From Sedimentisphaerales bacterium (lineage in GTDB: Bacteria > Planctomycetota > Phycisphaerae > Sedimentisphaerales > SM23-30): DNA of 58,523 bases. The stretch spans positions 1 through 58,523 of the forward strand of contig JAFGHE010000043.1 of NCBI GenBank assembly GCA_016930295.1. Direction: 5' to 3'. The notes under the pieces are model-generated. The model made no database searches, had not been told where the DNA came from, and saw only the letters and a list, made by a program, of their open reading frames with translations. Below, piece by piece: positions 1-51,562 of this stretch (its first letter is position 1; each line of letters starts with the position of its first letter). Made by a program: the position numbers and the translations under genes.

Positions 1-95
1 CAGAACAAAAACGAAAGCGAATTTCCAATTAAACCCTCTTTTGGGCATAGACATAACCTTTCAACCGTTTTGTAAGTATTCCTGTGCCGCTAATT

Positions 96-1775
96 TTAGA
101 AGTGCCTGACAAAATCGACGATCAGCTTTTTGGTCGTCTGCCAGAAAATCCATAGATCCAGCTTGAATGTCAGTTCCCTAACATATTTAACGTCATAATG
201 AATCCATTCCTGGAAATCCTGCCCCTGCTGCCGGGTACGGCAGATCTGCCAGAGCCCCGTGATTCCCGGACGAACGGACAATCTGGCATCCCGCCAGGGA
301 GGACACAATGAATTTTCCGATACCGGTGAGGGTCTGGGTCCGATCAAACTCATCTGGCCCAGCAAGACATTGAAGAATTGAGGTATCTCGTCAAGACAGG
401 TATCACGCATAAATTTACCCACGGTAGTAATACGGGGGTCATCTTCTATTTTGAACTGAGGACCATCCACCTGGCTTATTGCCCTCAGCTTACTCTGTAT
501 TCTGTCAGTACCCGTCATCATGGTCCTGAATTTCAGGCAACTGAATTCCTTGCCATGTAATCCCTGTCGTTTATCCTTGAAAAAAACAGGTCCCGGAGAA
601 GAAAGTTTTACCGCCAACATAAGAATCGGAAGAACAGGAGCAAAAAGCACCACTAATACCAATGCCGCTATAATATCGAAAAATCGCTTGAAGCACCCCG
701 CATAAGAAAATCGCGGCCAGGTACGGAAAACAGTAAATCTATTTTTTTGTCTAAAAGCCTGGGAGGTGATACAGTATCGTCGTAAAACACTTCCCTTCTG
801 CTCCCTGAAATGTTCGCCATTTAATTGGGTATCATCTGTAACAACCCGGTTCCTTATATAGTATTTTTCAGGGACCGTGATATGGGGGCCTATTACGGAT
901 GATTTAACGGTCACTTCGTTTGAAATCTCAACATTGTCACCGATAATGGCCGGACCAACGATTATGACATCCTGACGTATACGGACATTATGACCTAAAA
1001 ATACTTTACCAAAAAAGCGGGCATTTTTGTCAACAAGAATATTATTAGAGCCGAGCAAGCGCATATATTTTTGATGATTACCGGGCCAGATACTATTAAG
1101 ATAAAAATCGATCAAGGCAAGAAAGTCATCCTCTGCCTCCAGGTCCAGCGCCTTACCGGCAATGCTTATGCTGCGCAGAGTCAATGATTTTTTAATACCT
1201 CCGGACAATATCTCTTGAAAATTCAAGGGAAGCATACCATCCACCAGCAGTTCCTTGAGAATATCAATATTAACAAAAAGATGTTGGGGCCAACTATCGG
1301 GAACGGGAAGTTCTTGTGCCGTATCAGAGTACAAGCGACTGAAACCGGCTATATGCTTCTGAGAGGTAATGCGTATTTTTTCTCTGAATGCCGTCAATCC
1401 TGAATCCACATTGACAGATATAACATCAGCATTCAAGTCCGTTAAAATTCCAAAAAGCCATTCGTGATCAATATCAGTGATAAACCGGCCATTGGATATA
1501 ATAAACCATTGATTTCGTTTAGTATTATTTACTCTGTCAAGCTCGACGGCGATATCTTGCTTATAAAAGTTGATACTGGTTTCGGGCAGAGATGTTTCAA
1601 TCTGCCATTCCTTTGGGATTGCTATGAGGGGGGCCTGACTGAAATGATTAAAGGAATTAACACGCGTCAATCCATCCAACAGAAGAGTCGCCAGGGACTC
1701 ACTTGAAAGAACCGAATGAAGAATACCACTACGGCCTGGTGCGAAATTTTCCCTATGAATAACAATAAGCTGCAT
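96..1775 (-). CDS. Initiating polyprenyl-phosphate sugar phosphotransferase (bacterial sugar transferase, WbaP/EpsB type) with an N-terminal degenerate nucleotidyltransferase-like + hexapeptide-repeat module
   Basis: The C-terminal ~200 aa has one TM ('FFDIIAALVLVVLFAPVLPILMLAV') and family blocks 'SPGPVFFKDKRQGLHGKEFSCLKFRTM', 'DEIPQFFNVLLGQMSLIGPRP' and 'RPGITGLWQ'. The N-terminal ~350 aa is NTase-like but lacks the GGxGTRL loop. It is followed by hexapeptide repeats 'VRIRQDVIIVGPAIIGDNVEISNEVTVKSSVIG'. Confidence 0.85.
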   Translation of the reverse strand: MQLIVIHRENFAPGRSGILHSVLSSESLATLLLDGLTRVNSFNHFSQAPLIAIPKEWQIETSLPETSINFYKQDIAVELDRVNNTKRNQWFIISNGRFITDIDHEWLFGILTDLNADVISVNVDSGLTAFREKIRITSQKHIAGFSRLYSDTAQELPVPDSWPQHLFVNIDILKELLVDGMLPLNFQEILSGGIKKSLTLRSISIAGKALDLEAEDDFLALIDFYLNSIWPGNHQKYMRLLGSNNILVDKNARFFGKVFLGHNVRIRQDVIIVGPAIIGDNVEISNEVTVKSSVIGPHITVPEKYYIRNRVVTDDTQLNGEHFREQKGSVLRRYCITSQAFRQKNRFTVFRTWPRFSYAGCFKRFFDIIAALVLVVLFAPVLPILMLAVKLSSPGPVFFKDKRQGLHGKEFSCLKFRTMMTGTDRIQSKLRAISQVDGPQFKIEDDPRITTVGKFMRDTCLDEIPQFFNVLLGQMSLIGPRPSPVSENSLCPPWRDARLSVRPGITGLWQICRTRQQGQDFQEWIHYDVKYVRELTFKLDLWIFWQTTKKLIVDFVRHF

Positions 1776-1795
1776 ATTTTTTAATTTGATTCCGG

Positions 1796-4066
1796 TTACG
1801 AAGTAATTTCCTCTGTATTCTCATTCTTTGACTGGAGTGACGGCAATAATGCCTTATATGTCCTTCTTTTACCATTGCGTCTGGATTTGCCGGCCGTTTC
1901 GTAGTAATCATAACCGTAACGATTGTAGCTGTGCCGGGCCGATACATTACTCAACACGTTGCCCAGAATCCTGATATTTAACTGTCCCAGACGATCCAGG
2001 GTTTCCTTCAGATCCGAACCGATGGATTGACCGGCCAGGCTGCTCAGAATCACGGCATCGGCCATTTTGGCCCACAATAAGGCATCCGGAACAGCCAGTA
2101 CCGGCGGAGTATCAATAATGACATTGTCATAATTACGGCTCATTTCAGTAATAATATTTAATGATTCAGGATTCGACAAATGTTCAATCGCTGCGGTATT
2201 TTTTCTTCCATCAGAGGTCAACACGTCCAAGCCGGTTAATCCTAAAGAATGAATAACGTCTTCTATTCGTTTACTCCCTGACAACACCTCAGATAAACCC
2301 AACGAATTCACAGGAAGGTTCAGCAGACGAGCGATATCGGGTTTCCGTAAATCACCGTCGATCAACAGAACCTTATTGCCTGCCTGGGCCAGACTCGAAG
2401 CCAGATTGATTGCCAGAGTGGTTTTTCCTTCTGCCATCCTGGGGCTGGTAACCACAAGAATCCTGGGCATTTTGCCATCGTTTAACAATCTCAGGTTGGC
2501 TCGAATTGTTTGATAGTCATGAGCAATATGTTCTAATACATCCGCTTTGTCTATGTGTTCCAGCCTGGTCGAGGTTCCAATGACGGGTACGCCAATACTC
2601 CGGATAACGTCATCCGGAGTATACATACTTTTATCGGCTTTATCTCTTAGAAATGCCAATAACATACCAAATGCCAGTGACCCAAAGGTTGCAGCCGCAA
2701 TCAGTTTTTTTCGTTTGCTGGGGGCTGGCGCCACTGAAGCCGGGTAGGTTGTGATTCGGGGATCTCTGTTCTGTTCCATTTCCAGCATCTGAATACGCCG
2801 CCTGATATTATCATAGGTTTCTTTAATGATAGCCAGTTGCTCCTGTTCCTCTCCGATGTCCAGGTGTTTACGACCGATACCTATGGTCTTACTATTCTCC
2901 TCATCTAATTTTTCTCTTATGATATCTTCGCGTGTTATTAAACTCTCCAGTTCCGCTTTGGCAGTGGCAAGTTCGATGGTTTTGTTTTCAGAGGCCTGCT
3001 GAGCGACATCTTCTTTAAAAGTTTTTTCAAGATATTCGCGGCGTTTTTCAAGTTCCGTTCTGAATTGTTCCAGAAGTTCGGCTTTTACCTTCAGTTCAGG
3101 ATTACCTTCTGCCAGGGTTTGTTTGGCGCTAATAAGATCCTCCTGTATCTGTGCGATGCGCTGTGTCAGGGATTGTATCAAAGGATCGTTTTGAATAAGC
3201 ATCTGATGTCTCTCCAGTAAATCCCCGGGGACAACGGGGCGATCCATGGTTTTTTCGAGAAATGCTATTCTGGCCTCCAGGGTAAGCTTGGAAGCTTCCA
3301 GTTGCGTTAGCTGATCTTGTAAGAAAGCAACGCTGCGCAGCATCATCTCTTCGCGCGGCGTCAATTCAGTGCTGCCGAATTCCTCCGCCATCTGTCGTAT
3401 CTTATCTCTCTGGCGTGCCATTTTGTCGGCATACTGTCTGCGTTCATCTTCTAATAATTGCAGTTTTCGATCACGCCCCTGGGTTATTTTGTTACCTTCA
3501 ATTGCCATGAACGCTGAAAGAAACGCATTGGCAATCAATTCAGCTTCTTTGCCGGATTCACTTTGAACAGAAACCTCAATCAATTCACTACGACTTTGCG
3601 GAGCAATCCTGATAACATTACTATCAATTGCCCGTCTTAGTATTTCTATCGGTCTCAAAGGCTTTTGAGAAATAATATCTTTTTTGTTGAAGAAATTCAG
3701 TTCTTCAACCGCCAGGGAATCAACCACTTTCTCGAGCACCTGATCTCTCGTGAGAAGAACCGCTTGATCGGCCAAATTATTCCGGACAGCCAGTTCACCT
3801 GTTTCAGCATCGCTAAAAAGAACGGGGGAGACCGCCGATGCTATCTGAATTATTGCCGTCGCCGTATATTGGGGTTTAATTGCATACCACACGACTGGTA
3901 TGACTCCCCCACACATCACCACAAAGGTTATCAGCACAATATACCAGCGACGTAATATACCCTGAATCAAATCAGGTGAGGATGGATCTGATTGCCCCGG
4001 GAATTCTTCATAAGGGACATAATGATTCTGTAATGGCTGGGGCCGGTGTTCTACTAGATCGTCCAT
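1796..4066 (-). CDS. Polysaccharide co-polymerase (Wzz-type chain-length determinant) fused to a BY tyrosine autokinase (Wzc/GumC-EpsG-like)
   Basis: An N-terminal TM, a long coiled-coil periplasmic region and a second TM precede the kinase. Kinase motifs are Walker A 'SPRMAEGKTT', Walker A' 'LLIDGDLRKP', Walker B 'VIIDTPPVLAVPDA' and a C-terminal Tyr cluster 'YNRYGYDYYE'. A GGAG sits 10 nt upstream of the ATG. Confidence 0.9.
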   Translation of the reverse strand: MDDLVEHRPQPLQNHYVPYEEFPGQSDPSSPDLIQGILRRWYIVLITFVVMCGGVIPVVWYAIKPQYTATAIIQIASAVSPVLFSDAETGELAVRNNLADQAVLLTRDQVLEKVVDSLAVEELNFFNKKDIISQKPLRPIEILRRAIDSNVIRIAPQSRSELIEVSVQSESGKEAELIANAFLSAFMAIEGNKITQGRDRKLQLLEDERRQYADKMARQRDKIRQMAEEFGSTELTPREEMMLRSVAFLQDQLTQLEASKLTLEARIAFLEKTMDRPVVPGDLLERHQMLIQNDPLIQSLTQRIAQIQEDLISAKQTLAEGNPELKVKAELLEQFRTELEKRREYLEKTFKEDVAQQASENKTIELATAKAELESLITREDIIREKLDEENSKTIGIGRKHLDIGEEQEQLAIIKETYDNIRRRIQMLEMEQNRDPRITTYPASVAPAPSKRKKLIAAATFGSLAFGMLLAFLRDKADKSMYTPDDVIRSIGVPVIGTSTRLEHIDKADVLEHIAHDYQTIRANLRLLNDGKMPRILVVTSPRMAEGKTTLAINLASSLAQAGNKVLLIDGDLRKPDIARLLNLPVNSLGLSEVLSGSKRIEDVIHSLGLTGLDVLTSDGRKNTAAIEHLSNPESLNIITEMSRNYDNVIIDTPPVLAVPDALLWAKMADAVILSSLAGQSIGSDLKETLDRLGQLNIRILGNVLSNVSARHSYNRYGYDYYETAGKSRRNGKRRTYKALLPSLQSKNENTEEITS

Positions 4067-4104
4067 TTGATTTAATCTCCAACTTTACTGATACGATAAT
4101 CATA

Positions 4105-6099
4105 TCATTGTCTGGAACGAATGACCAGTACGTCTTCTTTATGATGATCTACCGGAACAGTAATTATTCTCGTCAATACCCATAATTCAAAAACAACAAT
4201 CGCCAGTGCCAAAGGCATCATGGCATATCCACCAAAATCATGAAACAGCTTTTCCCAGAATTCACCTTGAAGTATGGTAAAGGCGATGGATGTAAGGGTT
4301 AATCTTATCGTGTTGCAGAGCAGAGCAATCGGCAACGTAGAAAGTAAAACTATCAATTTCTCCCACCACTCCCGTTTCACCAGAAAAACCACAAAACCGC
4401 TGATTACGAAAAAAGAGGTTACCATTCTCAATCCGTTACAGGCCTCGGCGACGGCGACGCTTGTCTGGCCCAAATGGATAATATTGCCTTCTGTAGTCAC
4501 TTCATAGGCTAACATTTCCAGAGAGAATACTGCCGATGAGGTAGCCAGGCTCTGCAAGGGCAGCGTTATTCTGGCTTCAAACGACTTGGGTAAAGGAAGC
4601 ATCAGGAGTAGAAATAACAGTATAGTCAATGATTTACGAAAAACCTCCCTGCCAAACAACAGGAAAACCAGGGCAGCTATACTGACAACCAGGGAAAACC
4701 GTTCGGCCGATCCATACATAAAAAATAATCCAAAAAATCTTAATCCCTGCGCTGCCAGAAACACGGGTATTCCCCATAGCGAAGGCTGGATTCGACATCG
4801 CCTGATTTGCTTCCGTCGTGACCAGGCAATGTAAATAGCCATGAAAGGGACAAGCAGCCCGCAGGAATACTCATCACTTCTCGCCCATATCTGCCAGAGT
4901 TCGGCAATAGTACGCCAGTATGACCAGATAAAAGCAACCATAACTGCGCATACCCCAAGCCAGGGAAAATTGTTTTTTTCAGGGTACTCTCCCGGCTGTA
5001 TCCAACCAGGAATACTCTGATTCCGATTATTCTTCCGCAGTTGTATGAATGATTTGATCTGTTGAATTATCTTACGAATAAATTCGATGATTTTGGTAGT
5101 TATGCCTGGTGATATCGCGTTTCCTTTGACATGGACAAGCTCGTTTTCCAAAACCGACCTGTCACGTAGAATTGTATGATAATCCAGCAGGCATTTCTGA
5201 ACTTCACAATTCGCACCAACACGTGCATTATCCCAGAGAATACTTTCAGATATCATAGCCCCCCGGCCAATAGAAACATTACGGCCGAGGATTGTCGGGC
5301 CTATAATCACAGCATTCTCCGCAATGACCGCCCTATCCATGATGATTACCGGACCATAAATCCGTACGGTTTCATCAATGTCAGCCTCAGGACTGATCCA
5401 GCTGTTTTTTCCGTCAGCGGATTTACGGACAGGCATATCAATCTCTGTTTTATCGGCACTTTCAAGCCAGGCAGAGACCGCACGCATATATCCATCCCAA
5501 TCGCGAAAACCTTCCACTGATCGAGCAAGTCTTGTCATCGAAACTATCCTGCCGGCTCGCAAAAGAGACGGTACCAGAGTTTCCTTTATATCACAGTATC
5601 CTGTTTCAGGAATGAATTCTAAAACTGACGATTCACACAGGTAAACTCCCGCCGCTTCGCTATCCATATCCTCGGCGTTAATTTCCGGATGTAAGACCAC
5701 TGTCATGTCTGCCTGAGCATATCGGTGCTCTTCCACTAATTTATCGATATTGGGCGGACATATCATGTTAGCATGAAGAACCAGGAGTAATGATCCATCA
5801 TCGCCCTGTATCACATGCCGGATACTTCCCGCCGTGCCCAACGGTAACTGTTCCTCGACGAATTGCAACTGCATCCCATCCGGTGTGCCGATACTATCAC
5901 GCAGTTGATCCATTTCACCATACAAACAACAAATAATCGCCTGCGTCATTCCCTGGTGGGACAACCTACGCAGCAGACGTTCCAGTACGGACTCGTTTTC
6001 AATCGGCCACCGTGCCGGAGGACGCTCTGCTGCCAGAGGACATCGGCCAAATTCCCGATTACCGGCAAGTATTATCACTTTGACTTTATCTTTGCTCAT
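4105..6099 (-). CDS. Exosortase (EpsH/Xrt family) fused to an N-terminal nucleotidyltransferase + left-handed beta-helix domain
   Basis: aa ~375-664 form a multi-TM exosortase core with 'DEYSCGLLVP' entry, 'AEACNGLRM' (Cys), 'CNTIRL' (Arg) and 'HDFGGY' (His). aa 1-~330 have an NTP-transferase fold ('KVIILAGNREFGRCPL', 'LPLGTAGSIRHV') followed by hexapeptide repeats ('IYGPVIIMDRAVIAENAVIIGPTILGRNVSIGRGAMISESILWDNARVGANCEV'). It is one uninterrupted ORF. Confidence 0.8.
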   Translation of the reverse strand: MSKDKVKVIILAGNREFGRCPLAAERPPARWPIENESVLERLLRRLSHQGMTQAIICCLYGEMDQLRDSIGTPDGMQLQFVEEQLPLGTAGSIRHVIQGDDGSLLLVLHANMICPPNIDKLVEEHRYAQADMTVVLHPEINAEDMDSEAAGVYLCESSVLEFIPETGYCDIKETLVPSLLRAGRIVSMTRLARSVEGFRDWDGYMRAVSAWLESADKTEIDMPVRKSADGKNSWISPEADIDETVRIYGPVIIMDRAVIAENAVIIGPTILGRNVSIGRGAMISESILWDNARVGANCEVQKCLLDYHTILRDRSVLENELVHVKGNAISPGITTKIIEFIRKIIQQIKSFIQLRKNNRNQSIPGWIQPGEYPEKNNFPWLGVCAVMVAFIWSYWRTIAELWQIWARSDEYSCGLLVPFMAIYIAWSRRKQIRRCRIQPSLWGIPVFLAAQGLRFFGLFFMYGSAERFSLVVSIAALVFLLFGREVFRKSLTILLFLLLMLPLPKSFEARITLPLQSLATSSAVFSLEMLAYEVTTEGNIIHLGQTSVAVAEACNGLRMVTSFFVISGFVVFLVKREWWEKLIVLLSTLPIALLCNTIRLTLTSIAFTILQGEFWEKLFHDFGGYAMMPLALAIVVFELWVLTRIITVPVDHHKEDVLVIRSRQ

Positions 6100-6207
6100 G
6101 ATTTTTGCGGTACTCGATCAAGGCCCTATATCATAGAAGATTAAAATTACATAAGGTATAGATGTTTTTATGGTTTGTACTCCTGGGGATCAAATAATCA
6201 TCAACCA

Positions 6208-7197
6208 TCAATAACTAATTTCATCCACCGGCTCCACCAGAAGGGGCGGAGCATGCAAATATTTTGTAGTATTTCGTTTATTATCAATATCATGGAATAC
6301 CCGTTCCACCTGATCCGCCGTCAGGTCCGCGGCGGCAGCGATCTCACTTATGGAAATTCCATTATTCTTGCCATACAGACAAAGGTCCATTTTATCATAG
6401 GGCACTGAGAAATAAAATTCCGTCTGACTTTGGGGCATGGAATAGGTATCGGTTGTAGGAGGACGGTTACATATTTCCTCAGGAACACCCAGATACTCCG
6501 CAATCTGATAAACCTGAGTCTTGTATAAATGGGCAACAGGTTTTATATCCGCTGCTCCATCACCCAGTTTGACAAAAAAGCCCTGATCATATTCCTGGCG
6601 GTTCGGCGTGCCGGTCACGGCATAATTTAGACAATCAGCATGATAATATTCCAGCATTTTTCTCACCCGCTGCTTAAAGTTTGTAGCGGCTACAATACCC
6701 AGATACGCGCTGGGTGTCAGTCGGGCTTTGGTAATCCTGCCGTCTGGAGCCTGCACGATGACCGAGAAAATCCTGTAAGTATCCTCATCCATGACGCCGG
6801 GCAAGACAATCTTGGATTTATAGGCCGAGGTATATTCAGGAACAACGCTGCGAATAGCCTCATCCCGGCGCCGATAGCAGCCTACCGCCTCGAGAATTTC
6901 CGAGATATCCTCATGAACTACTGATATCCCCAATGTATCGGCAAGATGACGGCTAATGCGCAGAGTGTCTGAGGAAGAATCTTTTTCCGGCATCAAAAGC
7001 CCAAAGACTTTATCCTTGCCTAAAGCATGTACACTTAAGGCTGCCACCGCGCTGCTATCGATACCACCCGACATGGCGACTACCACGCCCCGTTTCTTAA
7101 ACTGTATGAGCGAATCACGCATCACTTTTGATATTTTTTCAACTTCCTGAGCATAATCCAGCTTTAGCGTATCCAGCGAAAAAGTCTGACTTGCCAT
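6208..7197 (-). CDS. NAD+ synthetase-like PP-loop ATP pyrophosphatase (NadE-family paralogue 1), probable amidoligase in EPS tailoring
   Basis: It has the PP-loop 'VVAMSGGIDSSAVAAL' and a NadE-like block 'VTGTPNRQEYDQGFFVKLGDGAADIKPVAHLYKTQVY'. An SD-like GGAAGGA lies upstream of the ATG. Confidence 0.75.
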   Translation of the reverse strand: MASQTFSLDTLKLDYAQEVEKISKVMRDSLIQFKKRGVVVAMSGGIDSSAVAALSVHALGKDKVFGLLMPEKDSSSDTLRISRHLADTLGISVVHEDISEILEAVGCYRRRDEAIRSVVPEYTSAYKSKIVLPGVMDEDTYRIFSVIVQAPDGRITKARLTPSAYLGIVAATNFKQRVRKMLEYYHADCLNYAVTGTPNRQEYDQGFFVKLGDGAADIKPVAHLYKTQVYQIAEYLGVPEEICNRPPTTDTYSMPQSQTEFYFSVPYDKMDLCLYGKNNGISISEIAAAADLTADQVERVFHDIDNKRNTTKYLHAPPLLVEPVDEISY

Positions 7198-7231
7198 TGA
7201 TATTCCTTCCTGAAATTAACAAAAGTAAAAT

Positions 7232-8776
7232 CTAATTGTACACATTTTCTTCTTTAAGTTGAGTTTTCATGATTTTTCCGGCCTCATTTTTTGGCAGTGA
7301 ATCCCGGAAAACTATATATTTTGGGGTTTTATATTGAGGTAACAATGTTTTCAATGCCTTTTTAACTTCATCTTCAGTTAGTTGAACTCCGTCACGGAGA
7401 ACAATAAAAGCCTTAATGGCTTCACCGAGTACCTGATCAACCACACCTACTACTGCAACTTCGTGTACTGCGTTAATGCTTAAAATAGCTTCTTCCACTT
7501 CCCTGGCACTGACGCGAAAACCACCGGCTTTGATAATATCCTTGGAACGGCCTATCACAAAGATATAACCATCTTCATCGGCCTGCCCTAAATCGCCGGT
7601 GAAATACAGGTTATTTTTCAATACCTGTGCCGTCCCGGCAGGATCGTTCCAATATCCTAACATGATATTTGAACCCCGGGCCACAATTTCACCTTTCTTA
7701 TGGGGCGGCAGTTTATTCCCATCGCTATCAGCAACAAACAAATCCACGTTGGGAATCGCCCTGCCGATAGAGCCCCATTTCTGGCTGAGCATCTCCGGTT
7801 CTATGTAAGACAGCCTTGGTGATGCCTCAGTGGCACCGTACATTATATATAGTTTTGCCGGGGAGAAAACTTCTGCCACTTCCTTCTGGATCGTCGGCGC
7901 CATAGAACCACCGGCCTGGGTGACATAACGCAATGAATTAAACGTAAATTTACGCACCGCTGATTTATTTAACAATATTAAAAAGGTGGACGGCACACCG
8001 GCAAACCCCGTAACCCCGGTTTCCTGCATAGTCTGCAATATTACCTGAGGGAAAGTAAAACGGTTATCCAACACGACAGAGCCACCTACACAAAAATGCG
8101 TGTTAAGCAGTGATTTGCCATAAATATAGTAAAATGGCAAAACAACCATAATACGATCGTCTGACGTTAATTCCAGGTACTGCACTATCGACTTCGTATT
8201 GCTGACCATATTGAGATGCGACAGGGTTACGCCCTTGGGCTTACCGGTACTGCCGGACGTATAAACAATCGAGGCCACATCTATATCAATACATCTTACA
8301 TCCGGATGACAATCCCGGCCCTGCTCATAAATCTCAGGCAGGCTAACAGAGTGACAATGCCCAATCTCCTTATAGTCATCCAGATTTTCCTGGTCAATAA
8401 TGACATACTTCAAAGCCGGTGTCATCCTCAGGGCCGGTATCAGAAATCTCGAATATTTTTCTGTGGTTATTATGGCCCGAGCCCCGGAATCATTAAAAAC
8501 ATAGGTTAACGACTCAATAGTGGTATCGGTGTTAAGCGACACGGTGATAGCACCCGCTTTAAGAGCCGCGTAATAGGATATAACATAGTCAAAGGAATTT
8601 TCGTACAGAATAGCAACTCTGTCACCTCGAGCAATACCAACGTCTTTTAAATAATTGGCCAACCTGTTGGAGCGCAGATCTATCTCGCCGTAAGTCATCC
8701 AGTTGTTTTTATACCACAGCGCCTGCTTGTCAGAATATTTCTGGGCTGAATTTTCCAGGAAATGATTAATCAGCAT
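7232..8776 (-). CDS. AMP-dependent synthetase/ligase (acyl-CoA/acyl-ACP ligase family)
   Basis: Adenylation motifs are present: 'VYTSGSTGKPKGVTLSH', 'YGATEA', 'YFTGDLGQADEDGYIFVIGRSKDIIKAGGFRVSAREVE' and a C-terminal 'GKIMK'. Confidence 0.9.
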   Translation of the reverse strand: MLINHFLENSAQKYSDKQALWYKNNWMTYGEIDLRSNRLANYLKDVGIARGDRVAILYENSFDYVISYYAALKAGAITVSLNTDTTIESLTYVFNDSGARAIITTEKYSRFLIPALRMTPALKYVIIDQENLDDYKEIGHCHSVSLPEIYEQGRDCHPDVRCIDIDVASIVYTSGSTGKPKGVTLSHLNMVSNTKSIVQYLELTSDDRIMVVLPFYYIYGKSLLNTHFCVGGSVVLDNRFTFPQVILQTMQETGVTGFAGVPSTFLILLNKSAVRKFTFNSLRYVTQAGGSMAPTIQKEVAEVFSPAKLYIMYGATEASPRLSYIEPEMLSQKWGSIGRAIPNVDLFVADSDGNKLPPHKKGEIVARGSNIMLGYWNDPAGTAQVLKNNLYFTGDLGQADEDGYIFVIGRSKDIIKAGGFRVSAREVEEAILSINAVHEVAVVGVVDQVLGEAIKAFIVLRDGVQLTEDEVKKALKTLLPQYKTPKYIVFRDSLPKNEAGKIMKTQLKEENVYN

Positions 8777-8802
8777 AATTGTTTACCATTTTTTAAAGTA
8801 TC

Positions 8803-9780
8803 TTAAGAAACATCTCCATCCAATGAGTAAGCCGGCACTCGCAAGTGGGCCGTGGCATGGTTCTTTGAAGCAAAGTCTTTAAACGCTCTTTTGACTGCTT
8901 CATCAGAGATATCCAGCACCTTTGAAGTCTGTTCTACCGGTACTTGATGTTCCCATGCATAAAGGAGAAAATCAAGCTTATCAAAAGGAATGCGGAAGAA
9001 GAATTCCTGGTCATTCACCGGAAGGCTGAAGGTGTCCGGGCTTGGCGCTCGATCAATAATCTCCGAAACCACAGCGAGATGGTCGGCAAGCTGATATATC
9101 TGGTTCTTATAAAGGTGTGCAAGTGCTTCTATGTCGGTACCACCATCACCATACTTGCAAAAATCACCCAGAATGAACTCAGTTCGATTGGTAGTGCCGG
9201 CAACAATCAGGTTGCGTCGTTCGGCTTCCGCGTATAAATGAATCATACGAGACCTGATCTTGATATTCGCAAAAGAAGTAATGGTTCGAAATTCTTCCAG
9301 GTTCAAGCGCTTCTTTTCCAGGGTGCCGTCAGGCAGCTTTACCTGGAGTACATAGAAATTAAAAGAAGCGCGATCAAGAAGGTCCGTGGGTAATGTTATA
9401 TTATATTTGCATCCAGGAGTGTAACCCGGGATCAATTTCCTGATAAATTCGTCACGCTGACTGTAGGAAGCTACACTATCCACGGTAGGGGTAATATCGA
9501 TTTCACGAAATTCTATCCCGAGTTCCTTCGCATGACTTACCGCATACTGACTGCTTACCGGATTCGATTCCCGCTCAGGCAGAATCAGGCCGACCACTTT
9601 ATCCTTCCCTACCGCCTCCACCGCAAGAGCACACATGACCGCAGAGTCAATGCCGCCACTCAGTCCGACCACTACCCCTTTCCTCCGGTAACCCTTTGCC
9701 ACCTGTTCAGTAACAAATTGGGTGACTCTTTTGGTTTCCTCAGCGCAATTAATCTTCAAGACATCGAGATTAAACTGCAT
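8803..9780 (-). CDS. NAD+ synthetase-like PP-loop ATP pyrophosphatase (NadE-family paralogue 2)
   Basis: It is a paralogue of 6208..7197, with 'VVGLSGGIDSAVMCAL' and 'AGTTNRTEFILGDFCKYGDGGTDIEALAHLYKNQIY'. I place the start at ATG 9780, which has GGGAGG 6 nt upstream, rather than the ORF-track start at 9807. Confidence 0.75.
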   Translation of the reverse strand: MQFNLDVLKINCAEETKRVTQFVTEQVAKGYRRKGVVVGLSGGIDSAVMCALAVEAVGKDKVVGLILPERESNPVSSQYAVSHAKELGIEFREIDITPTVDSVASYSQRDEFIRKLIPGYTPGCKYNITLPTDLLDRASFNFYVLQVKLPDGTLEKKRLNLEEFRTITSFANIKIRSRMIHLYAEAERRNLIVAGTTNRTEFILGDFCKYGDGGTDIEALAHLYKNQIYQLADHLAVVSEIIDRAPSPDTFSLPVNDQEFFFRIPFDKLDFLLYAWEHQVPVEQTSKVLDISDEAVKRAFKDFASKNHATAHLRVPAYSLDGDVS

Positions 9781-10036
9781 AACTGGCCTCCCTGTCAATA
9801 AAAACATGCTCCCTGATTCTGTATCGAAAGTGATATAAAATTAACTTTTCCCTGCCTTATTCTTTTTTTTCGATTTCGTCCAGGTATCCATGGATAAATA
9901 TACCCGCGTCTTATCAGGCCCACGACAACATAACCGGCCCATCATCTACCTTAAAGCGCATATCATTCGGTCCAACCAAACAGTTAATTGTGGCTACTTC
10001 ATACACAGTCTAACCTTAAAATGAGATAAGCAGATA

Positions 10037-10309
10037 TTATTTTCCCTCCTCTTTGGGAACGGACATACCATCGAGTTTCTTATCCAGAAACGCCGAGATA
10101 TTCATGAGGCTATCAAGGTTTTCCGGAACCAGCTCATCGTCATCGATTTTAACTTTATAGTTTTCTTCGAGGAAAGTAATCATTTCCAGAATTCCCGTGG
10201 AATCAATAATGCCGTTTTCCAGGAACGACATTTCATCTGTAAGTTGCGCGCTGTCTCCAAAAAGAAAATTCTCAACCACAAATTCACGTATGGTATCGAT
10301 ATTACTCAT
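10037..10309 (-). CDS. Acyl/peptidyl carrier protein (ACP paralogue A)
   Basis: This is a 90-aa acidic protein with the phosphopantetheine Ser motif 'GIIDSTGILE'. A GGAGGG SD lies upstream. Confidence 0.85.
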   Translation of the reverse strand: MSNIDTIREFVVENFLFGDSAQLTDEMSFLENGIIDSTGILEMITFLEENYKVKIDDDELVPENLDSLMNISAFLDKKLDGMSVPKEEGK

Positions 10310-10409
10310 TTAACACACACCCTCCACCAAAAAATAATCAGCAACTATGTCAATCAAAGCAAACATTACGATTTTATGGTATAGGAATAATAACAAAACG
10401 CACTATGAA
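10310..10409 (-). promoter_or_regulatory. Conserved leader upstream of ACP paralogue A, homologous to 12830..12924
   Basis: Read on the coding strand, both leaders share 'gttttgt', 'cgtaat(a/g)tttgcttt', 'ttattttttgg' and 'agggt' in the same order before the ATG. This copy also contains a TTGACA hexamer. Confidence 0.35.
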
Positions 10410-12425
10410 TTAATCAGCATTTTTTACACCGACATAATCCGTTTTATTTTTTCGATCAAAGATGACAGTCCTGGGCAGTTTATCAATAACATTTTCCGTT
10501 CGGGAGGAAAAATCATCTATATAATCTCTGGCTACCATCTGGCTGGACAAAATGCCAACCAGGGCCATATTATCCGTTTCACTGGCTTCCCCGCCATTGA
10601 TTAATTTATTTTTCAATCGATTAACCTTTGCCGGATCAAACAGTCCGGCATTGCTTAACGATGTTTCCGAGAGCATATCATGGACGGATTCCAAAGCCTT
10701 GCCGCTAAACAAACTTTGTTCGATCGGAGCCCGATAAGGATGTTTGGCCCTGTTAACGATATCATCCGGCAGAATTCCCTGGAAAGATTTCTTCAAGATA
10801 TGCTTTTCATTTAAACCCAGAATTTTCCATTTAGAGGGAACACGTCCCATAAATTCCATCAGACGAGGATCCAGATAGGGCAACCTGATTTCTATAGAGT
10901 TTGCCATCGCCACCCGATCCCCCTGTGATGAAAGCAGGTAATTACTTAAAAACAGGGATGTTTCCAGATATTGGGCCCTGGATAATGTATCCCAACCGGC
11001 ATAGCCGTCAGGTAAGGACTCTTTAACCTGTTCGTATCCGTCATACGACCCGATGGCCGCCTTAAGCTCATCAGAAAAAAAGGTTTTGATTTTACCGGTA
11101 TTTTCCCATCGAACAAGATGCGAAAATAACGGATCATCAAACTGATCCAATCCCATGCCAAAAAATGACTCCAACATCCGTTTGAGCCGGGGATTGTCAA
11201 ATATATAAGGATAGAGCTGGCCAATCAGTCCCGGTCGCATCGTGGAATCCGGCTGGCGGGCCCAGAAACGCCTCACTTTGGTCTCCCGAAATATATTATA
11301 TCCCCCAAATATTTCATCCGCACCTTCACCGGTCAGGACAACTTTGATGCCGCTCTGGCGGACCAGTTTTGAAAGCAAAAACAGCGGCACCGGCGCAGTT
11401 CTCAAAAGAGGTTTTTCACAATGCCAGATAACATTATTTAATGATTCGCCGATTTCGTCATTAGTTGCCATGATCTCTTTATGATTGGCCTTAAGGAAAA
11501 ATACCATTCGATTCTGGTATTTACCTTCGTCAAAAGCATCCTCTTCAAAACGAATCCCAAAAGTGCGTACATCACTGTTAAAATTCTGCACGACCAGAGA
11601 CGTCACCCCAGAGGAATCCAGCCCGCCACTTAAATAAGCACCCACCGGCACATCGGCCCGAAGCCGGATTCTCACGGCATCCAGCAGCAACTCATGGATC
11701 TTTTCGCTAATTTCTGCCGGCGATAAATCCACCTGCTCATGACGAGGATAAAAAGGAATATCCCAATATTTATTAATTGATACCTTGCCATGTGCCGCAC
11801 GCAGATAATGACCAGGGGGCAATTCGCAGATATCCTTGAATATCGACACTCCCGGCAAAGTAGTCCAAAACGTAAATATCTGATCCATAGCAACAGGATC
11901 AATCTGGCGCGGAATCTCATCCACCATAAAAATTGATTTAACTTCCGAAGCAAAAATCAAGGTATCCTTATACCGGGTATAATACAAGGGCCTGATTCCG
12001 ATCCGATCCCGGGCTAAAAATAATTCCCTTTTCTTGCTATCCCATATCGCCAAGGCAAATTGCCCATTTAAATCATCCAGGCAGGCAGGCCCTTTCTCCT
12101 CGTACAAGTGCAGAATCACCTCCGTATCACTGGTCGTATAAAATGTATGGCCCTTTTGTACGAGTTTTTCCCTCAGTTCAGGGTAATTATAGACTTCTCC
12201 ATTGTAGATAATCCACATGGTTTTATCTTCATTGTGAATCGGCTGTGTCCCCGAACAAAGGTCAATAATACTCAGGCGCGCATGGCCCAGTCCGACAAAC
12301 GAATCTATATAGATACCTGCTTCATCCGGACCACGGTACTGCATGACCGCCGTCATCCGTTTGAGGGTATCTAAAGACAGAGTATCAGAGCCATTAAACG
12401 AATAAATGCCGGTTATTCCACACAT
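10410..12425 (-). CDS. Asparagine synthase family glutamine amidotransferase (AsnB-like, exosortase-system-type amidotransferase)
   Basis: It has the N-terminal nucleophile 'MCGI', a GATase-2 domain, and the synthetase PP-loop 'YLSGGLDSS'. At 671 aa its size is typical of EPS-associated AsnB paralogues. Confidence 0.9.
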   Translation of the reverse strand: MCGITGIYSFNGSDTLSLDTLKRMTAVMQYRGPDEAGIYIDSFVGLGHARLSIIDLCSGTQPIHNEDKTMWIIYNGEVYNYPELREKLVQKGHTFYTTSDTEVILHLYEEKGPACLDDLNGQFALAIWDSKKRELFLARDRIGIRPLYYTRYKDTLIFASEVKSIFMVDEIPRQIDPVAMDQIFTFWTTLPGVSIFKDICELPPGHYLRAAHGKVSINKYWDIPFYPRHEQVDLSPAEISEKIHELLLDAVRIRLRADVPVGAYLSGGLDSSGVTSLVVQNFNSDVRTFGIRFEEDAFDEGKYQNRMVFFLKANHKEIMATNDEIGESLNNVIWHCEKPLLRTAPVPLFLLSKLVRQSGIKVVLTGEGADEIFGGYNIFRETKVRRFWARQPDSTMRPGLIGQLYPYIFDNPRLKRMLESFFGMGLDQFDDPLFSHLVRWENTGKIKTFFSDELKAAIGSYDGYEQVKESLPDGYAGWDTLSRAQYLETSLFLSNYLLSSQGDRVAMANSIEIRLPYLDPRLMEFMGRVPSKWKILGLNEKHILKKSFQGILPDDIVNRAKHPYRAPIEQSLFSGKALESVHDMLSETSLSNAGLFDPAKVNRLKNKLINGGEASETDNMALVGILSSQMVARDYIDDFSSRTENVIDKLPRTVIFDRKNKTDYVGVKNAD

Positions 12426-12924: not shown

Positions 12925-15069
12925 TTAATCAATATTCGGTACATTAATCAATTTTAATGCTGTCATAAAATTCGTCGCATTGTCACGGGCAATGCCAAAG
13001 TCCAATGCATTAACAAAACGATCCCGGTTGAAATCATACTGATCGTCGATCAAAGCCGGACTGAGAAAATTCCGAGGATGGTCCCGCACTCCGCCGGTAT
13101 CGAAAGCATTCACCTCGGCTTTCGATGGATCATTACCCGTCTCGCCAATGGCGTTACCAAAATAGAATACGTCATTTCCAGTCAATCCTGTGTTTTCGGT
13201 AGCCATAACCACAACCTGCAACCACTGCTTTTCAATAGCGTTATCCGCCCAGATGATGGTCACGCGATCTGAACCATCCACTCCTTCACCGGGTCGTACG
13301 ATAATGTGTTGTGGGTAAGGTGCCATGGACCAGGAGTTTGGATCGTCATTGTTGCCAACACGGAACTCAAAGTCGCCATCGCCAAGGTTTCCCCTATCCG
13401 CTAAATTAGCCATATCCACTATAATCCCATTGATCCCCCGGCAATAACTGGTGTAATTCGCAAAGTGTGCTATCTGTCCTGGTAAAAGTGCCTGCTTGTC
13501 AATACCGATGGCATTATCGTCATCGGCATTGAAGTTTGGATCATTTCCGTCAAAATAAGAGTTATTATAAAAGATATAGCGGCCAACAACATCGCATTGC
13601 GGGCCGGTCACCAGTTCAATACCACTGCCAATACCAAGATTGCGGGAATATTGTTTATCAATGGGATTATTCCAATGTTCATGAACGCCGAGACTCTGCA
13701 ATCTTGTACCATCTCCCTCTGGATCGTAAAACGTACCCGAAGGTGGATTATCGGCCAGAGCAGCTTCATGCAGATAATTATCAGCATTATCCCATAGAGA
13801 CCACTCCATGCGTAAAAAATCCAAGCCCACCGAATCAATCGCCACCGGATCCTGGGAAACAAAAATACTCGAGGGCCAATCGTGATTGAAGGGAGGCGAA
13901 TTCCATATTTGGGGAGGATTGTTAACACGATCACTTCCGTATAAACCATCAATAACATATAACATTGTTTTGGCTCCGATATTGTTACATCCTATTAAAT
14001 CTACGGTGGGGTCATAACTGGCCATCCCTCTAACAAGGCACCGTATAGAGGGATGTAATTCGGAAGGCCCGTAGATAGTACCTAAATTATTTTTACCACA
14101 AAGACTTACTGCTGCTCGTATGTCATGTACTTTTAATATGGCTATATTTATCATATATTCTGCATCAAGTACATATTGGGGTACCCTGCGTGCATTAGAA
14201 TCTGTAATTTCAGCAGAATAAGTAATACTGTCATTGACCCATTGTACACTGGGATTATAATTTACATTTGGAAAGTCCGGATAACAATAATCAGATACGA
14301 GTTCTATTGGTCTTATTGCATCATATATCGTAATTGCCTGTTGATTAATCCCTGCGTCCTGGACTAATTGCTTGAGAAAACCATATACCAGATGAGGCGT
14401 TGCATCAATCTCGCCTTCTTCGCCGCGATTATTCATATTAATTTTGATAACAATCTGTTCTCCTGACTGGTAACCGATATTTCCCTTTCCATTATTTTGA
14501 TTATAATGCCTGAATAGTTCATCCCATGCTAAAGTATCTTCTGTTTGACCTGTCAGCCATCGCAGAGATTTTGATATCATAGCTTCGACCACGTTGGGAT
14601 CTGTATTTGAATATTCATACCAATCGCCATTCAGGCCATCCCAGGACGTGGCGTCCGGATCATGGACCCAAACAACTCTGCCTGGATGAATCCCCCGGGC
14701 TACGCCGATGGGGGAATTATACGGATCCGATGGCACAAAATCTCCCCTGGCGGGTTTCTGCGCAATATGTATAGTAAGCCATGCAGTTGTCAATCCCAGA
14801 AAAACTAATACTGCTGCAATGACCGGATACGATTGTCTCATTTTTTTGTGTGCCAGACGAAACACCCATGCGGTCCCGAAAATTCCCGCTACATAGGATA
14901 CAAAACTTGATGCGATCGGAAAAGCTGCCCGCTGGCATGGATACGCAGCTCGACTGGGCTTTGGAATCACACGGATAAGAAACCACAGTAATGCCAGCAA
15001 ACCGGTGAAGATAAAGAAGAGCCTGGCGAGACAGTAATACAGCCGACTAATAGTATTCCCTGTTTTCAT
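12925..15069 (-). CDS. Membrane-anchored DUF362-like protein with C-terminal dockerin/EF-hand-like loops
   Basis: There are N-terminal TM helices. DUF362-like blocks are 'GEQIVIKINMNNRG..ATPHLVYGFLKQLV' and 'INIAILKVHDIRAAVSLCGKNNLGTI'. The C-terminus has 'DFNRDRFVNALDFGIARDN', which resembles a dockerin-type Ca loop. Confidence 0.55.
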   Translation of the reverse strand: MKTGNTISRLYYCLARLFFIFTGLLALLWFLIRVIPKPSRAAYPCQRAAFPIASSFVSYVAGIFGTAWVFRLAHKKMRQSYPVIAAVLVFLGLTTAWLTIHIAQKPARGDFVPSDPYNSPIGVARGIHPGRVVWVHDPDATSWDGLNGDWYEYSNTDPNVVEAMISKSLRWLTGQTEDTLAWDELFRHYNQNNGKGNIGYQSGEQIVIKINMNNRGEEGEIDATPHLVYGFLKQLVQDAGINQQAITIYDAIRPIELVSDYCYPDFPNVNYNPSVQWVNDSITYSAEITDSNARRVPQYVLDAEYMINIAILKVHDIRAAVSLCGKNNLGTIYGPSELHPSIRCLVRGMASYDPTVDLIGCNNIGAKTMLYVIDGLYGSDRVNNPPQIWNSPPFNHDWPSSIFVSQDPVAIDSVGLDFLRMEWSLWDNADNYLHEAALADNPPSGTFYDPEGDGTRLQSLGVHEHWNNPIDKQYSRNLGIGSGIELVTGPQCDVVGRYIFYNNSYFDGNDPNFNADDDNAIGIDKQALLPGQIAHFANYTSYCRGINGIIVDMANLADRGNLGDGDFEFRVGNNDDPNSWSMAPYPQHIIVRPGEGVDGSDRVTIIWADNAIEKQWLQVVVMATENTGLTGNDVFYFGNAIGETGNDPSKAEVNAFDTGGVRDHPRNFLSPALIDDQYDFNRDRFVNALDFGIARDNATNFMTALKLINVPNID

Positions 15070-17326: not shown

Positions 17327-18316
17327 TTAAAAAACATCCATATAAAATCGATCCACCGACGTGATATTTAAACGATCAATAAATGGAATATAATACAGAT
17401 TAAATTGCTTTGGCGTTTTATAAAAACCCAAGGACTCAAAAAATTTACTGTCAAAATGCCCCAGGTCGGGAATACAAACGGTATCGATATCCTTCCAATA
17501 AGGATCCAGTAAAATTGTCTTCAGAAAAGACTGGATCTGAATATCAGTCATGCCATCAAAAGCGATTTTTTCCACATACGCATTAATGGTGTCCTTTTCA
17601 CCCAGGAATGATTTCTGAATTATATTAAAAATACCCATAACCTTCGCGTCATTTCTGTATATCCATGTTTTTGTAAGAGGACGATCTTTAAAAACATAAT
17701 CAATGTCAACTTCAGAAATAATTTCCGCCACATCCAATTGATGATTTGCTGAGTTAATAAGTTCCATGCATTGTTGTTTAAACTCAGAAGAATAGGAAAA
17801 GACATTCGGGTCTTCGTCCGCCTGAATACGCCTGCATACCATGCGAGGTAATGCAGCCATCTGTGAAAAATATTTAAGAAATCGAAAAGATTCCTTCAAA
17901 CGTGAATATACAGACTTATTACTCCAGTCGGCAATAGAATTACGATGAGTAACTGTAAAAAGTCCGGCAAAATCCTTGTCTCTTGCTTTGCTTAATAAAT
18001 CTTTATGAAGTTTCAGTGCAATTTCTCGACCCCTGAATTGTTTACTTGCCGTCCACCAGGTAGCGAACACCACCGGATATATTTCATCGTTGACGCTGAC
18101 ACGGTATGGGGCAAAATATTCATATCCTGCGAGCTGGTCGCCGCAATATACTCCCAGGCTTAGTGAAGGATCTCCGGAAGGCCTGTTAATATAACTACTA
18201 AGGACATCCGGCGTATAATCCCAGCGCGGTTTTCCCCAGGTATTTGACATTAAATCTGAAACTTCATCAAGGTCGGGATTATATACAAATTTTTCATCTG
18301 TCTCATTAGTTGACAT
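17327..18316 (-). CDS. Hypothetical protein, possibly a GNAT-fold acyltransferase
   Basis: 'VVFATWWTASKQFRGREIALKLHKDLL' resembles a GNAT acyl-CoA-binding motif. Its start overlaps the decarboxylase stop by 11 nt, suggesting translational coupling. No stronger motif was recognised. Confidence 0.4.
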   Translation of the reverse strand: MSTNETDEKFVYNPDLDEVSDLMSNTWGKPRWDYTPDVLSSYINRPSGDPSLSLGVYCGDQLAGYEYFAPYRVSVNDEIYPVVFATWWTASKQFRGREIALKLHKDLLSKARDKDFAGLFTVTHRNSIADWSNKSVYSRLKESFRFLKYFSQMAALPRMVCRRIQADEDPNVFSYSSEFKQQCMELINSANHQLDVAEIISEVDIDYVFKDRPLTKTWIYRNDAKVMGIFNIIQKSFLGEKDTINAYVEKIAFDGMTDIQIQSFLKTILLDPYWKDIDTVCIPDLGHFDSKFFESLGFYKTPKQFNLYYIPFIDRLNITSVDRFYMDVF

Positions 18317-34250: not shown

Positions 34251-34997
34251 TCAAAATTCATTTTCCTCTCCAGATTTTCCAAGTTCAGCCGCTTTGACAA
34301 TGCCGTTCTGGTCCGGTAAATAATCAAGAATTAAATTACTAAAATCCCTGGTAGCCGAACGGACTGAATTTTCTGAGACGGAGCTTAACTGGACCTGGGC
34401 CACATACCGGGCCGGATCGCCGGCTATATTAGGAGTACGCCAGCCTACCCCGGAAAATACACTCTCATCATCTGTTAACCTGCCGTTAACTATATAAAAA
34501 TTTAGTACTACCAGCTCTTCGTATTCAGGTACTGGCAGATGGAAACGGTGTAGAAGGCATGGTATCTCCAAGCCACTATTGGAAAACTCCACCGCCTGGT
34601 CGGTCCTATTTAATATCCACCCTTGGGCCGGATAACATATCTGGGGCTGATGGCCTATCATAGTCCGCGGCCGGGCAGTAAAGGCAATGTATATATTGAT
34701 CCATTGGTTGGTTCCCCTCTTTATATATATGCGACTTAAAAAATCATCATTTTTGGCAACCTCCTGAATATTTATAGGTATCGGAACTTCCTTACCGATC
34801 CATTGGCCTATCTCCATAGGAAACTCATTCAATGCCATAGGCAAGGTTATAATATTTTCGTTAATGCCTTGCAGATAGCCGGCTACTGAGCGATAGGTAG
34901 CGCCTGAAAATATCAATAACAGGACCACAACCGGCCATATCCATTTACCAGATTTCGGTGGATCTGTTTCTAAAGCCATATTGGTAAAATTTTCCAT
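34251..34997 (-). CDS. epsI: EpsI-family exosortase-associated protein
   Basis: After an N-terminal TM it has 'MIGHQPQICYPAQGWIL', matching the family's H-x-P-x-x-C-[YL]-P-x-x-GW core. The 'YVAQVQL' tail and 248-aa size also fit. Confidence 0.75.
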   Translation of the reverse strand: MENFTNMALETDPPKSGKWIWPVVVLLLIFSGATYRSVAGYLQGINENIITLPMALNEFPMEIGQWIGKEVPIPINIQEVAKNDDFLSRIYIKRGTNQWINIYIAFTARPRTMIGHQPQICYPAQGWILNRTDQAVEFSNSGLEIPCLLHRFHLPVPEYEELVVLNFYIVNGRLTDDESVFSGVGWRTPNIAGDPARYVAQVQLSSVSENSVRSATRDFSNLILDYLPDQNGIVKAAELGKSGEENEF

Positions 34998-45823: not shown

Positions 45824-45828
45824 CCAAA

Positions 45829-48156: not shown

Positions 48157-48161
48157 ATATC

Positions 48162-51117: not shown

Positions 51118-51129
51118 GGGAGAATAATC

Positions 51130-51555: not shown

Positions 51556-51562
51556 ATACCCC

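Follow-up and report, generated by a model that had tools for sequence, protein, structure and literature searches.

Exosortases were found through their genomic link to exopolysaccharide (EPS) loci, and the mechanism that connects protein sorting with polysaccharide synthesis has been open since 2006 (PMC1569441). The usual fusion partner of an exosortase is an EpsI-like domain, and the EpsH fusions named in the 2006 exosortase paper involve EpsI and CAAX-protease-like domains only (PMC1569441). Here we analyzed a 58,523-nt stretch (the window) of a Sedimentisphaerales genome (contig JAFGHE010000043.1 of assembly GCA_016930295.1; Planctomycetota, Phycisphaerae), in which a single gene joins a nucleotidyltransferase (NTase)-like domain and a left-handed beta-helix (LbH), together called the head, to an exosortase core. 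The features of this locus are listed in Table 1. Full-text literature searches found no description of an exosortase–nucleotidyltransferase fusion, with Haft 2012 (J Bacteriol) and O'Toole 2021 (PNAS) outside our reach and an earlier mention therefore possible. No title or abstract listed by searches on exosortases in Planctomycetes or Phycisphaerae dealt with a head–exosortase architecture. We see in it a clean natural fusion rather than a system of a new kind, and its entries in public databases have generic names.

The fusion protein shares with XrtA/EpsH (Haft et al. 2006, PMC1569441) the core family, the Cys, Arg, and His residues, and the polytopic topology. The EPS loci of both also share Wzc, a phosphoglycosyl transferase (PGT), a PrsT-like tetratricopeptide repeat (TPR) protein, an AsnB-type amidotransferase, ligase_PEP_1, and EpsI. 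Unlike XrtA, whose model gave 140.1 bits against a cutoff of 208, the protein has an N-terminal extension of about 375 residues that is predicted to be cytoplasmic. Candidate substrates in related loci have V/I-P-A-P and not the PEP of the XrtA/PEP-CTERM system. The best-scoring named models were those of XrtD (156.8 bits, cutoff 400) and XrtW (154 bits, cutoff 425), which are also fusion exosortases. However, XrtD and XrtW carry EpsI at the C-terminus, whereas here EpsI is encoded by a separate gene and the added domain is N-terminal, probably cytoplasmic, and of the NTase/LbH fold. XrtV scored 107.1 against 313, and all the named subtypes that were scored (XrtA, B, C, D, J, N, T, V, W, and the cyanoexosortases) were below their cutoffs.

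In GMPPA/GMPPB, eIF2B gamma/epsilon, and GlgD/GlgC, pseudo-enzymes made of an NTase domain and an LbH are paired with their paralogues. The head shares their two-domain fold and degenerate site, and here the paralogue is encoded in the same operon. While those pairs are soluble and regulate an active NTase or guanine nucleotide exchange factor, here both paralogues appear to be dead and each is tethered to a different membrane enzyme. Unlike for pairs of the GMPPA/GMPPB type, we infer the pairing of the two heads here by analogy. Active sugar-1-phosphate NTases (GMPP, RmlA, GlmU, GlgC) have the same NTase-then-LbH fold, but their G-loop, Lys, Asp, and EKP motif are not shared. The PGT of the operon, in which a small core follows a fused N-terminal domain (Bi-PGT-like), resembles WbaP in having a monotopic PGT core behind a non-catalytic cytosolic domain (PMC10942596). 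Unlike WbaP, its accessory domain is an NTase+LbH pseudo-enzyme and not PF13727, and it has no four-helix transmembrane (TM) bundle.

The fusion gene and its family

The 664-aa open reading frame (ORF) is on the minus strand, which the earlier note on this DNA had left unstated, and every peptide quoted in that note was found in its translation. KVIILAGNREFGRCPL is at aa 7-22 and LPLGTAGSIRHV at aa 85-96, while AEACNGLRM, CNTIRL, and HDFGGY are at aa 551-559, 595-600, and 620-625. As seen in the translation and in Pfam and NCBIfam matches, the ORF encodes a complete exosortase core behind the head (aa 1-320) and a basic linker helix. Pfam assigned NTP_transferase (PF00483, partial) to residues 9-138, LbH_EIF2B to 234-333, and Exosortase_EpsH (PF09721) to 388-642. 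AlphaFold2 (AF2) and Foldseek agreed with Pfam and NCBIfam on this architecture. The head model matched solved NTase+LbH proteins (tlr0611, VTC1, GMPPA/B, eIF2B subunits, ADP-glucose pyrophosphorylase) with Foldseek E values of 1e-13 to 1e-9, and the N-terminal region does model as NTase/LbH. All 50 listed structure matches cover the head, and none of them is an exosortase.

In a search of 5.8 billion clustered proteins, at least 120 clusters of 620-690 aa covered about 100% of the fusion protein at 47-65% identity. Nearly all of them have the same Pfam set, and NTP_transferase is listed for about three quarters. The named relatives are few and are called just "exosortase", and their source metagenome-assembled genomes (MAGs) are labelled Planctomycetota, Phycisphaerae, or Sedimentisphaerales. 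Locus counts below refer to the best 80 of 381 species-representative genome stretches that encode a relative. Of these 80 loci, all from MAGs or single-amplified genomes, 79 are named as Planctomycetota lineages or are unclassified and one is labelled Lentimicrobiaceae. The fusion gene belongs to a conserved and so far unnamed exosortase subfamily of uncultured Planctomycetota.

The earlier note had asked whether the junction might be an artefact of assembly, a frameshift, or a missed stop, to be recognized by two separate genes in orthologous loci. One MAG (L002) does have two separate genes in the same order. However, this split is a natural one and no sign of a frameshift in the window: a 321-aa head gene ends at its own stop, 134 nt of spacer intervene, and the exosortase gene (346 aa) begins from a new start, in another frame and with an unrelated N-terminal stretch; Wzc comes next. 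Head and core share one uninterrupted frame in 80 of 80 loci and in the full-length clusters, so the junction is genuine. Thus the artefact reading was rejected, and it has practically no chance of being right. The L002 spacer (2377..2509) contains a direct repeat, AACCGGCAAGTG..., which may be a remnant of an event that split the head and the exosortase or had not yet joined them.

The core is an exosortase by its scores. It reached 195.7 bits with PF09721 (cutoff 25.7), and it passed both the generic exosortase model TIGR02602 (145.2, cutoff 105.55) and the exo/archaeosortase signature TIGR04178 (53.5, cutoff 23). C554, R599, and H620 are invariant in 120 of 120 family members. AF2 helices and loop charges place these three residues at the outer-leaflet side. 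Across the family the linker ahead of the first TM helix has 10.5 K/R against 3.4 D/E per sequence, and a positive-inside analysis of the AF2 helices predicts eight TM helices with both termini inside. Residues 505-529 of the core are weakly hydrophobic, and residues 530-550 are a predicted periplasmic hairpin. Since the linker is strongly basic and the loop charges alternate, the head is predicted to be in the cytoplasm, as the earlier note had supposed, and across the membrane from the exosortase active site.

Two scans of the window for PEP-CTERM-type tails gave just a spurious antisense ORF and the C-terminus of Wzx. In the flanks of four other fusion loci, small proteins (L013 21143..21853, L023 5061..5762, L074 21216..21854, L079 21323..21931) end with V/I-P-A-P-G/S-A, a TM helix, and a tail of the WLRRRR type. 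A fifth protein (L004 2813..3589) has a VPAPAS-TM-RRLRRR tail. These tailed proteins are about 200-260 aa long. Against the PEP_CTERM domain model (cutoff 16), the tails of L004 and L023 scored 15.9 and 14.1, and the other three gave weak matches to PEP-CTERM protein-family models only. Judged from these sequences, the cognate signal of this subfamily could plausibly be a PAP version of the PEP-CTERM one.

The two heads and the cassette

Catalytic positions of the head were read from the family profile aligned without indels to active Arabidopsis VTC1 and Leishmania GDP-MP. Over the G-loop block the profile reads ikaiilaGsrDFGRCPLasrlPtalWP. GGxGTRL is replaced by AGxRDFGRC in the family and by GNREFGRCPLA in the window protein itself. 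Among 120 members, residues 16-20 are D (111), F (111), G (113), R (102), and C (104), and so the G-loop Thr has become Phe and the Arg has become Gly. The position of the PKPL Lys (aa 29) is Ala or Thr in the family, with Ala in 102 of the 120. By the four commonest residues at each site, Ser, Gly, Asn, or Ala stands at the LNSD Asp position and Asn or Ser at the WMDIG Asp position. Compared with VTC1 143-174, the profile lacks about 24 residues between its positions 145 and 152, a stretch that we take to carry the EKP motif in GMPP sequences. The alignment shows the head to be a pseudo-enzyme: it has lost the Thr-Arg of the G-loop, the Lys of PKPL, the Asp at both Mg-binding positions, and the segment with EKP, and with them the residues for nucleotidyl transfer. 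The earlier note had doubted catalysis from the replaced loop (GNREFGRCPL) while allowing that full motifs might appear on proper alignment; the loss reaches beyond the loop, and no such motifs appeared. Other parts of the site are kept. PxGTAG is near-invariant (P86, G88, A90, G91), D170-I-K-E173 is invariant in 120 of 120, and conservation is also strong for the replacement motif AGxRDFGRCPL. The family alignment has no invariant or near-invariant His in the LbH (aa 230-330).

Five Cys residues of the head (aa 20, 57, 155, 298, and 303) are conserved in 104-118 of the 120 members. C20 is in the replaced G-loop (FGRCPL) and is kept in standalone heads, and C298 and C303 form a C-x4-C pair in the LbH. 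From their conservation, these cysteines could form a metal or redox site.

The fusion gene opens a rigid five-gene cassette, in which the head–exosortase is followed by a Wzc-type tyrosine kinase, a headed PGT, a PrsT-like TPR protein, and a LuxR/GerE-type regulator. The Wzc-type kinase is directly downstream of the fusion gene in 79 of 80 loci. The headed PGT is downstream of it in 63 of 64 evaluable loci. The PGT is followed in 58 of 58 evaluable loci (among L008-L086) by a TPR protein, about 1,390 aa in length and with a TM helix at its N-terminus, and next comes a small GerE/LuxR regulator in 56 of 58. In the window, the Wzc gene starts 38 nt downstream of the fusion gene, and its Tyr cluster has the conserved pattern SYxRYGYxYY. 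The TPR gene is cut at the window edge; its relative in L001 (16152..20727) scored 295.4 with the PrsT model (cutoff 312.2). Gaps of 38, 20, and 41 nt suggest co-transcription of the cassette. A promoter and terminator scan of positions 1..7400 gave no excess of sites over shuffled sequences. Two MAGs each contain two full cassettes (L024 and L037 in VRUL01, L047 and L055 in DAOWID01), whose Xrt/PGT copies have diverged in parallel, with 82%/75% and 58%/58% identity. These are either cassette-level duplications or mixed bins.

The earlier note had also seen a similar head on the neighboring PGT (gene 96..1775, minus strand), and hhalign, AF2, and Foldseek agree. The PGT core matches WbaP/PglC-type entries in PDB. 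In its 330 N-terminal residues Pfam detected LbH only. By hhalign the two head families matched with 98.9% probability and an E value of 1.7e-17, over residues 83-317 of the Xrt head family (A1) and 74-325 of the PGT head family (A2), which span the second half of the NTase fold and the LbH. Pairwise BLASTP of the two heads found the LbH only, and a profile against the single sequence covered residues 199-316. The AF2 model of the PGT head (pLDDT 80-92) aligned by Foldseek over about 350 columns to ST0452, VTC1, GMPPA/B, and eIF2B. Since the profiles match and both models match the same NTase+LbH structures, these comparisons show the Xrt head and the PGT head to be paralogues, of which the PGT head is the more decayed.

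Heads also occur apart from exosortases. An exhaustive head-only search returned 116 representatives at E <= 1e-30, which comprise fusions and proteins of about 320-430 aa. Some of the short proteins are truncated fusions and others stop exactly after the LbH. L004 encodes a standalone head in divergent orientation to an exosortase fragment, and the VPAPAS-tailed protein comes after this head. In four loci with more distant relatives (L087, L088, L089, L090), a standalone head, Wzc, and a headed PGT are encoded in this order, and in L088-L090 the triad is followed by Wza-type exporters. No exosortase gene was found in the 9.7-21 kb of contig around each of these heads (5.8-10 kb per side of the head gene). 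Because these triads have no exosortase nearby, the head, Wzc, and the headed PGT form the constant module, and the exosortase is a lineage-specific fusion partner.

The standalone heads have the degenerate signature AGGQEFGQCPL...PRALWP, PRGAAG, and D-x-K-E, yet P0391-P0471 are annotated as mannose-1-phosphate guanylyltransferase or NDP-sugar synthase. Judged by their missing catalytic residues, this looks like systematic misannotation, and it exposes a widespread annotation problem. The C-terminal 25 or so residues of the standalone heads are a conserved W/R-rich stretch (WWxRxW...RP), which may be a membrane-binding amphipathic tail and the positional analogue of the basic linker helix in the fused form. 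The Wzc-like kinase of L087 (3529..6090) carries an extra PilZ domain, which hints at c-di-GMP input into the module. P0340 has a Poly_export neighbor, and P0260 is on a 1-kb contig.

Role of the head

We propose that the head serves the polysaccharide-initiation machinery as a subunit without catalysis, in assembly or regulation. The Xrt head would pair with the paralogous PGT head, as other NTase+LbH pseudo-enzymes do with their paralogues. The fusion would thereby dock a periplasm-facing PEP-CTERM-type exosortase onto the cytoplasmic face of a PGT/Wzc complex, and protein sorting would then occur where and when polysaccharide initiates. We regard this proposal as evenly balanced between being right and being wrong. 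Since the free head sits in triads without an exosortase, its primary partners look like polysaccharide-initiation proteins. Both heads are predicted to be cytoplasmic, the Xrt head by its basic linker and the PGT head by the topology of monotopic PGTs, whose N-terminus and catalytic domain are on the cytoplasmic side (PMC10942596). Accessory cytosolic domains of PGTs mediate dimerization and nucleotide sensing (PMC10942596).

Co-variation was measured in 65 loci as correlations between inter-protein distances (mirror-tree). The Xrt head and the PGT head were the top inter-protein pair (r = 0.695), and their partial correlation was 0.34 after the exosortase core, the PGT core, and the kinase domain were regressed out (permutation p ~0.0005). 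In contrast, the partial correlation between the Xrt head and the equally fast-evolving periplasmic domain of Wzc was -0.13. This co-variation is supportive only, as residual phylogenetic signal may contribute. The earlier note had suggested that the head could trimerize the exosortase with the headed PGT. An association of the two is favored by paralogy, by synteny in 63 of 64 loci, and by co-variation, but a trimer is not specifically supported. Short LbH domains of the GMPPB_C/eIF2B type mediate dimer-type contacts and not GlmU-type trimers.

Several points weigh against our proposal. Confidence in the AF2 model of the whole protein is only moderate, with a mean pLDDT of 65.9 (NTase about 75-88, LbH 57-71, TM bundle about 70-80). 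The window encodes no PEP-CTERM-type substrate. Fast domains can track phylogeny better than slow cores, and the co-variation may come from this. The absence of an exosortase from the standalone-head loci covers only 5.8-10 kb on each side of the head gene. Finally, L077 (9980..13360) is the single exception among the evaluable loci, with a fusion gene that has no headed PGT within 10 kb; the 451-aa ORF after this gene matches just the N-terminal half of the Wzc query.

The nucleotide-sugar-gated protein sorting put forward in the earlier note is unsupported as stated, since the head is free of exosortase in L087-L090. As a sensor, the dead head would bind an NDP-sugar or NTP and switch the exosortase allosterically across the membrane, like GMPPA. 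We consider this unlikely, although some evidence fits it. PxGTAG and DIKE align with segments of the nucleotide/sugar pocket of active GMPPs, the conserved degenerate site AGxRDFGRCPL argues for a kept function at the pocket, and the accessory domain of WbaP gives a precedent for nucleotide sensing in the pathway (PMC10942596). However, other residues stand in place of the Thr-Arg, Lys, and both Asp, and the EKP segment is missing. Because the head exists without an exosortase nearby, gating of sorting cannot be its general role. In the NTase family these Thr-Arg, Lys, and Asp residues hold the NTP phosphates and the metal. GMPPA, which senses GDP-mannose, also keeps its G-loop, unlike the head. 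From the sequence, the retained PxGTAG and DIKE leave room for a possible ligand-sensing role in addition to the one we propose.

Alternatively, the heads might be docking sites or phospho-acceptors for the ring of the Wzc bacterial tyrosine kinase (BY-kinase), and Wzc phosphorylation would control both the PGT and the exosortase. Wzc is the most constant neighbor of the head, whether the head is fused, split, or standalone, and its Tyr cluster is that of an active BY-kinase. The head has two invariant Tyr residues (Y153 and Y204), with similar ones in the standalone heads (Y156 and Y207), but these may be structural. Published precedents exist both for accessory domains that regulate PGTs and for the control of PGTs by kinases (PMC10942596, PMC12802240), and as cited in these two papers a BY-kinase activates the small PGT CapM. 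Against this reading, the head does not co-vary with the periplasmic domain of Wzc; the kinase domain served as a control in that analysis. We think this reading somewhat less probable than a sensor. Less favored still is a head that is enzymatically active, as a nucleotidyltransferase or an acyltransferase of the LbH kind, through an unusual site, and that supplies or modifies a precursor near the exosortase. In its favor, the fold has stayed intact under purifying selection, and C20, C57, C155, C298, and C303 might make up another kind of active site or a metal site. Nevertheless, all canonical NTase catalytic positions are gone in all or nearly all of the 120 members, and an active bifunctional NTase was rejected because of this. 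An acyltransferase role is unlikely since no His is conserved in the LbH, although it has hexapeptide repeats. Related loci also encode separate conventional NTases (L089). A working enzyme seems highly improbable. A sensor, a kinase adaptor, and a novel activity are each compatible with the assembly or regulatory role that we propose.

A more far-reaching version is that the two dead heads form a cytoplasmic platform like eIF2B gamma/epsilon, possibly with the Wzc ring, that welds the initiating PGT, the co-polymerase, and the exosortase into a single machine of the inner membrane. The exosortase would pass PEP/PAP-CTERM proteins to an acceptor made on the spot, an undecaprenyl-linked glycan or the nascent polysaccharide. 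We hold this to be rather improbable. If true, the exosortase would act as a protein-to-glycan transpeptidase, and the fusion would hard-wire the supply of its acceptor.

The locus is a Rosetta-stone case, because a component of the module of head, Wzc, and headed PGT is fused to the exosortase in the 80 inspected genomes and separate in related lineages. The fusion suggests a physical link of protein sorting to polysaccharide synthesis, and it makes the connection between exosortases and polysaccharide directly testable. Concrete candidate partners can be named: the heads of the exosortase and of the PGT, and the kinase domain of Wzc. As soluble domains they are expressible and need no cultured host for testing. 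Moreover, the NTase+LbH pseudo-enzyme would be a new class of accessory domain for monotopic PGTs.

Other genes of the window

Table 1. Features of the locus, with coordinates in the 58,523-nt window
Feature	Coordinates	Strand	Basis or remark
Whole fusion gene	4105..6099	minus	664 aa; pseudo-NTase + LbH head, then linker helix and exosortase core
NTase-like (Rossmann/GT-A-like) domain, aa 1-215	5455..6099	minus	PF00483, AF2, Foldseek; appears catalytically degenerate
Family motif IILAGNREFGRCPL, aa 9-22, in place of NTase G-loop GGxGTRLxPL	6034..6075	minus	Indel-free alignment
LbH, aa 230-320, GMPPB_C/eIF2B-epsilon type	5140..5412	minus	PF25084, PF00132, PF24894; short AF2 strands at 251-318; homologous to the LbH of the PGT
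Basic linker with long helix, aa 321-377, cytoplasmic (predicted)	4969..5139	minus	AF2 helix 331-357, family charge counts
Exosortase core, aa 378-664, eight predicted TM helices	4105..4968	minus	PF09721, TIGR02602, TIGR04178, loop charges
Cys554 codon (AEACNGLRM), putative catalytic Cys, outer-leaflet end of TM helix	4438..4440	minus	
Arg599 codon (CNTIRL)	4303..4305	minus	
His620 codon (HDFGGY)	4240..4242	minus	
Wzc-type co-polymerase and bacterial tyrosine kinase, Tyr cluster HSYNRYGYDYYE	1796..4066	minus	Wzz + AAA_31, TIGR01007 above cutoff
PGT head, aa 1-330, paralogous, more degenerate NTase+LbH	786..1775	minus	hhalign, AF2, Foldseek, full-length homologues
Monotopic PGT catalytic domain, aa 355-559, re-entrant helix, DEIPQ dyad	96..713	minus	PF02397 363-552
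PrsT-like giant TPR gene start, MSMPKRGFNWKF..., first 16-18 codons, cut at window edge	1..54	minus	Matches N-terminus of L001 TPR protein
Acyl-CoA ligase, 'exosortase A system-associated'	19643..21172	minus	TIGR03098 596.3 vs 592.35
EpsI-family (DUF3485) gene	34251..34997	minus	PF11984 56.8 vs 26.1; TIGR02914 35.7 vs 42.8

Several markers of the XrtA set were scored. ligase_PEP_1 passes (Table 1) and PrsT, represented by the L001 protein, is just under its cutoff. The amidotransferase (471.8, cutoff 816.9), TyrKin (107, cutoff 230.65), ChnLen (68.7, cutoff 278.85), and EpsI models are also under theirs. The EPS system of the window is thus related to the XrtA/PEP-CTERM set but not canonical. 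On the minus strand (17327..21172), the acyl-CoA ligase is followed by a pyridoxal phosphate-dependent decarboxylase of the XrtA-associated type (373.6, cutoff 478) and a weak GNAT match; the ligase, decarboxylase, and GNAT are the trio of XrtA loci. AsnB-type, FemAB-like, deacetylase, Wzx, and Wzy genes are also encoded in the window.

Upstream of the fusion gene (6208..12425, minus strand), two paralogous NAD-synthase-like genes of the PRK00876 type flank an acyl-CoA ligase gene, and an AsnB-type amidotransferase gene adjoins them. NadE-like, ligase, and AsnB genes are upstream of the fusion in about six of the 80 loci (e.g., L013, L022, L067, L071, L073, and L086). A 714-aa protein (12925..15069, minus strand) matches only DUF362 (aa 206-417), with no NCBIfam match, and a DUF362 protein is also encoded in the standalone-head EPS locus L087 (11400..13001). 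The genes of an F420-hydrogenase-beta-like Fe-S protein and of a polysaccharide pyruvyl transferase form a pair within the EPS locus (31123..33673, minus strand).

On the plus strand, a type II secretion operon (44918..56011) has genes that match GspC, D, E, F, J, K, L, and M and a pseudopilin. Directly upstream of it, a 2,699-aa protein (36380..44479) has InlB-type B-repeats and a LamG/pentraxin-like domain. This protein, in which a C-terminal sorting tail was looked for and not found, may be a dedicated cargo of the type II secretion system or an adhesin.

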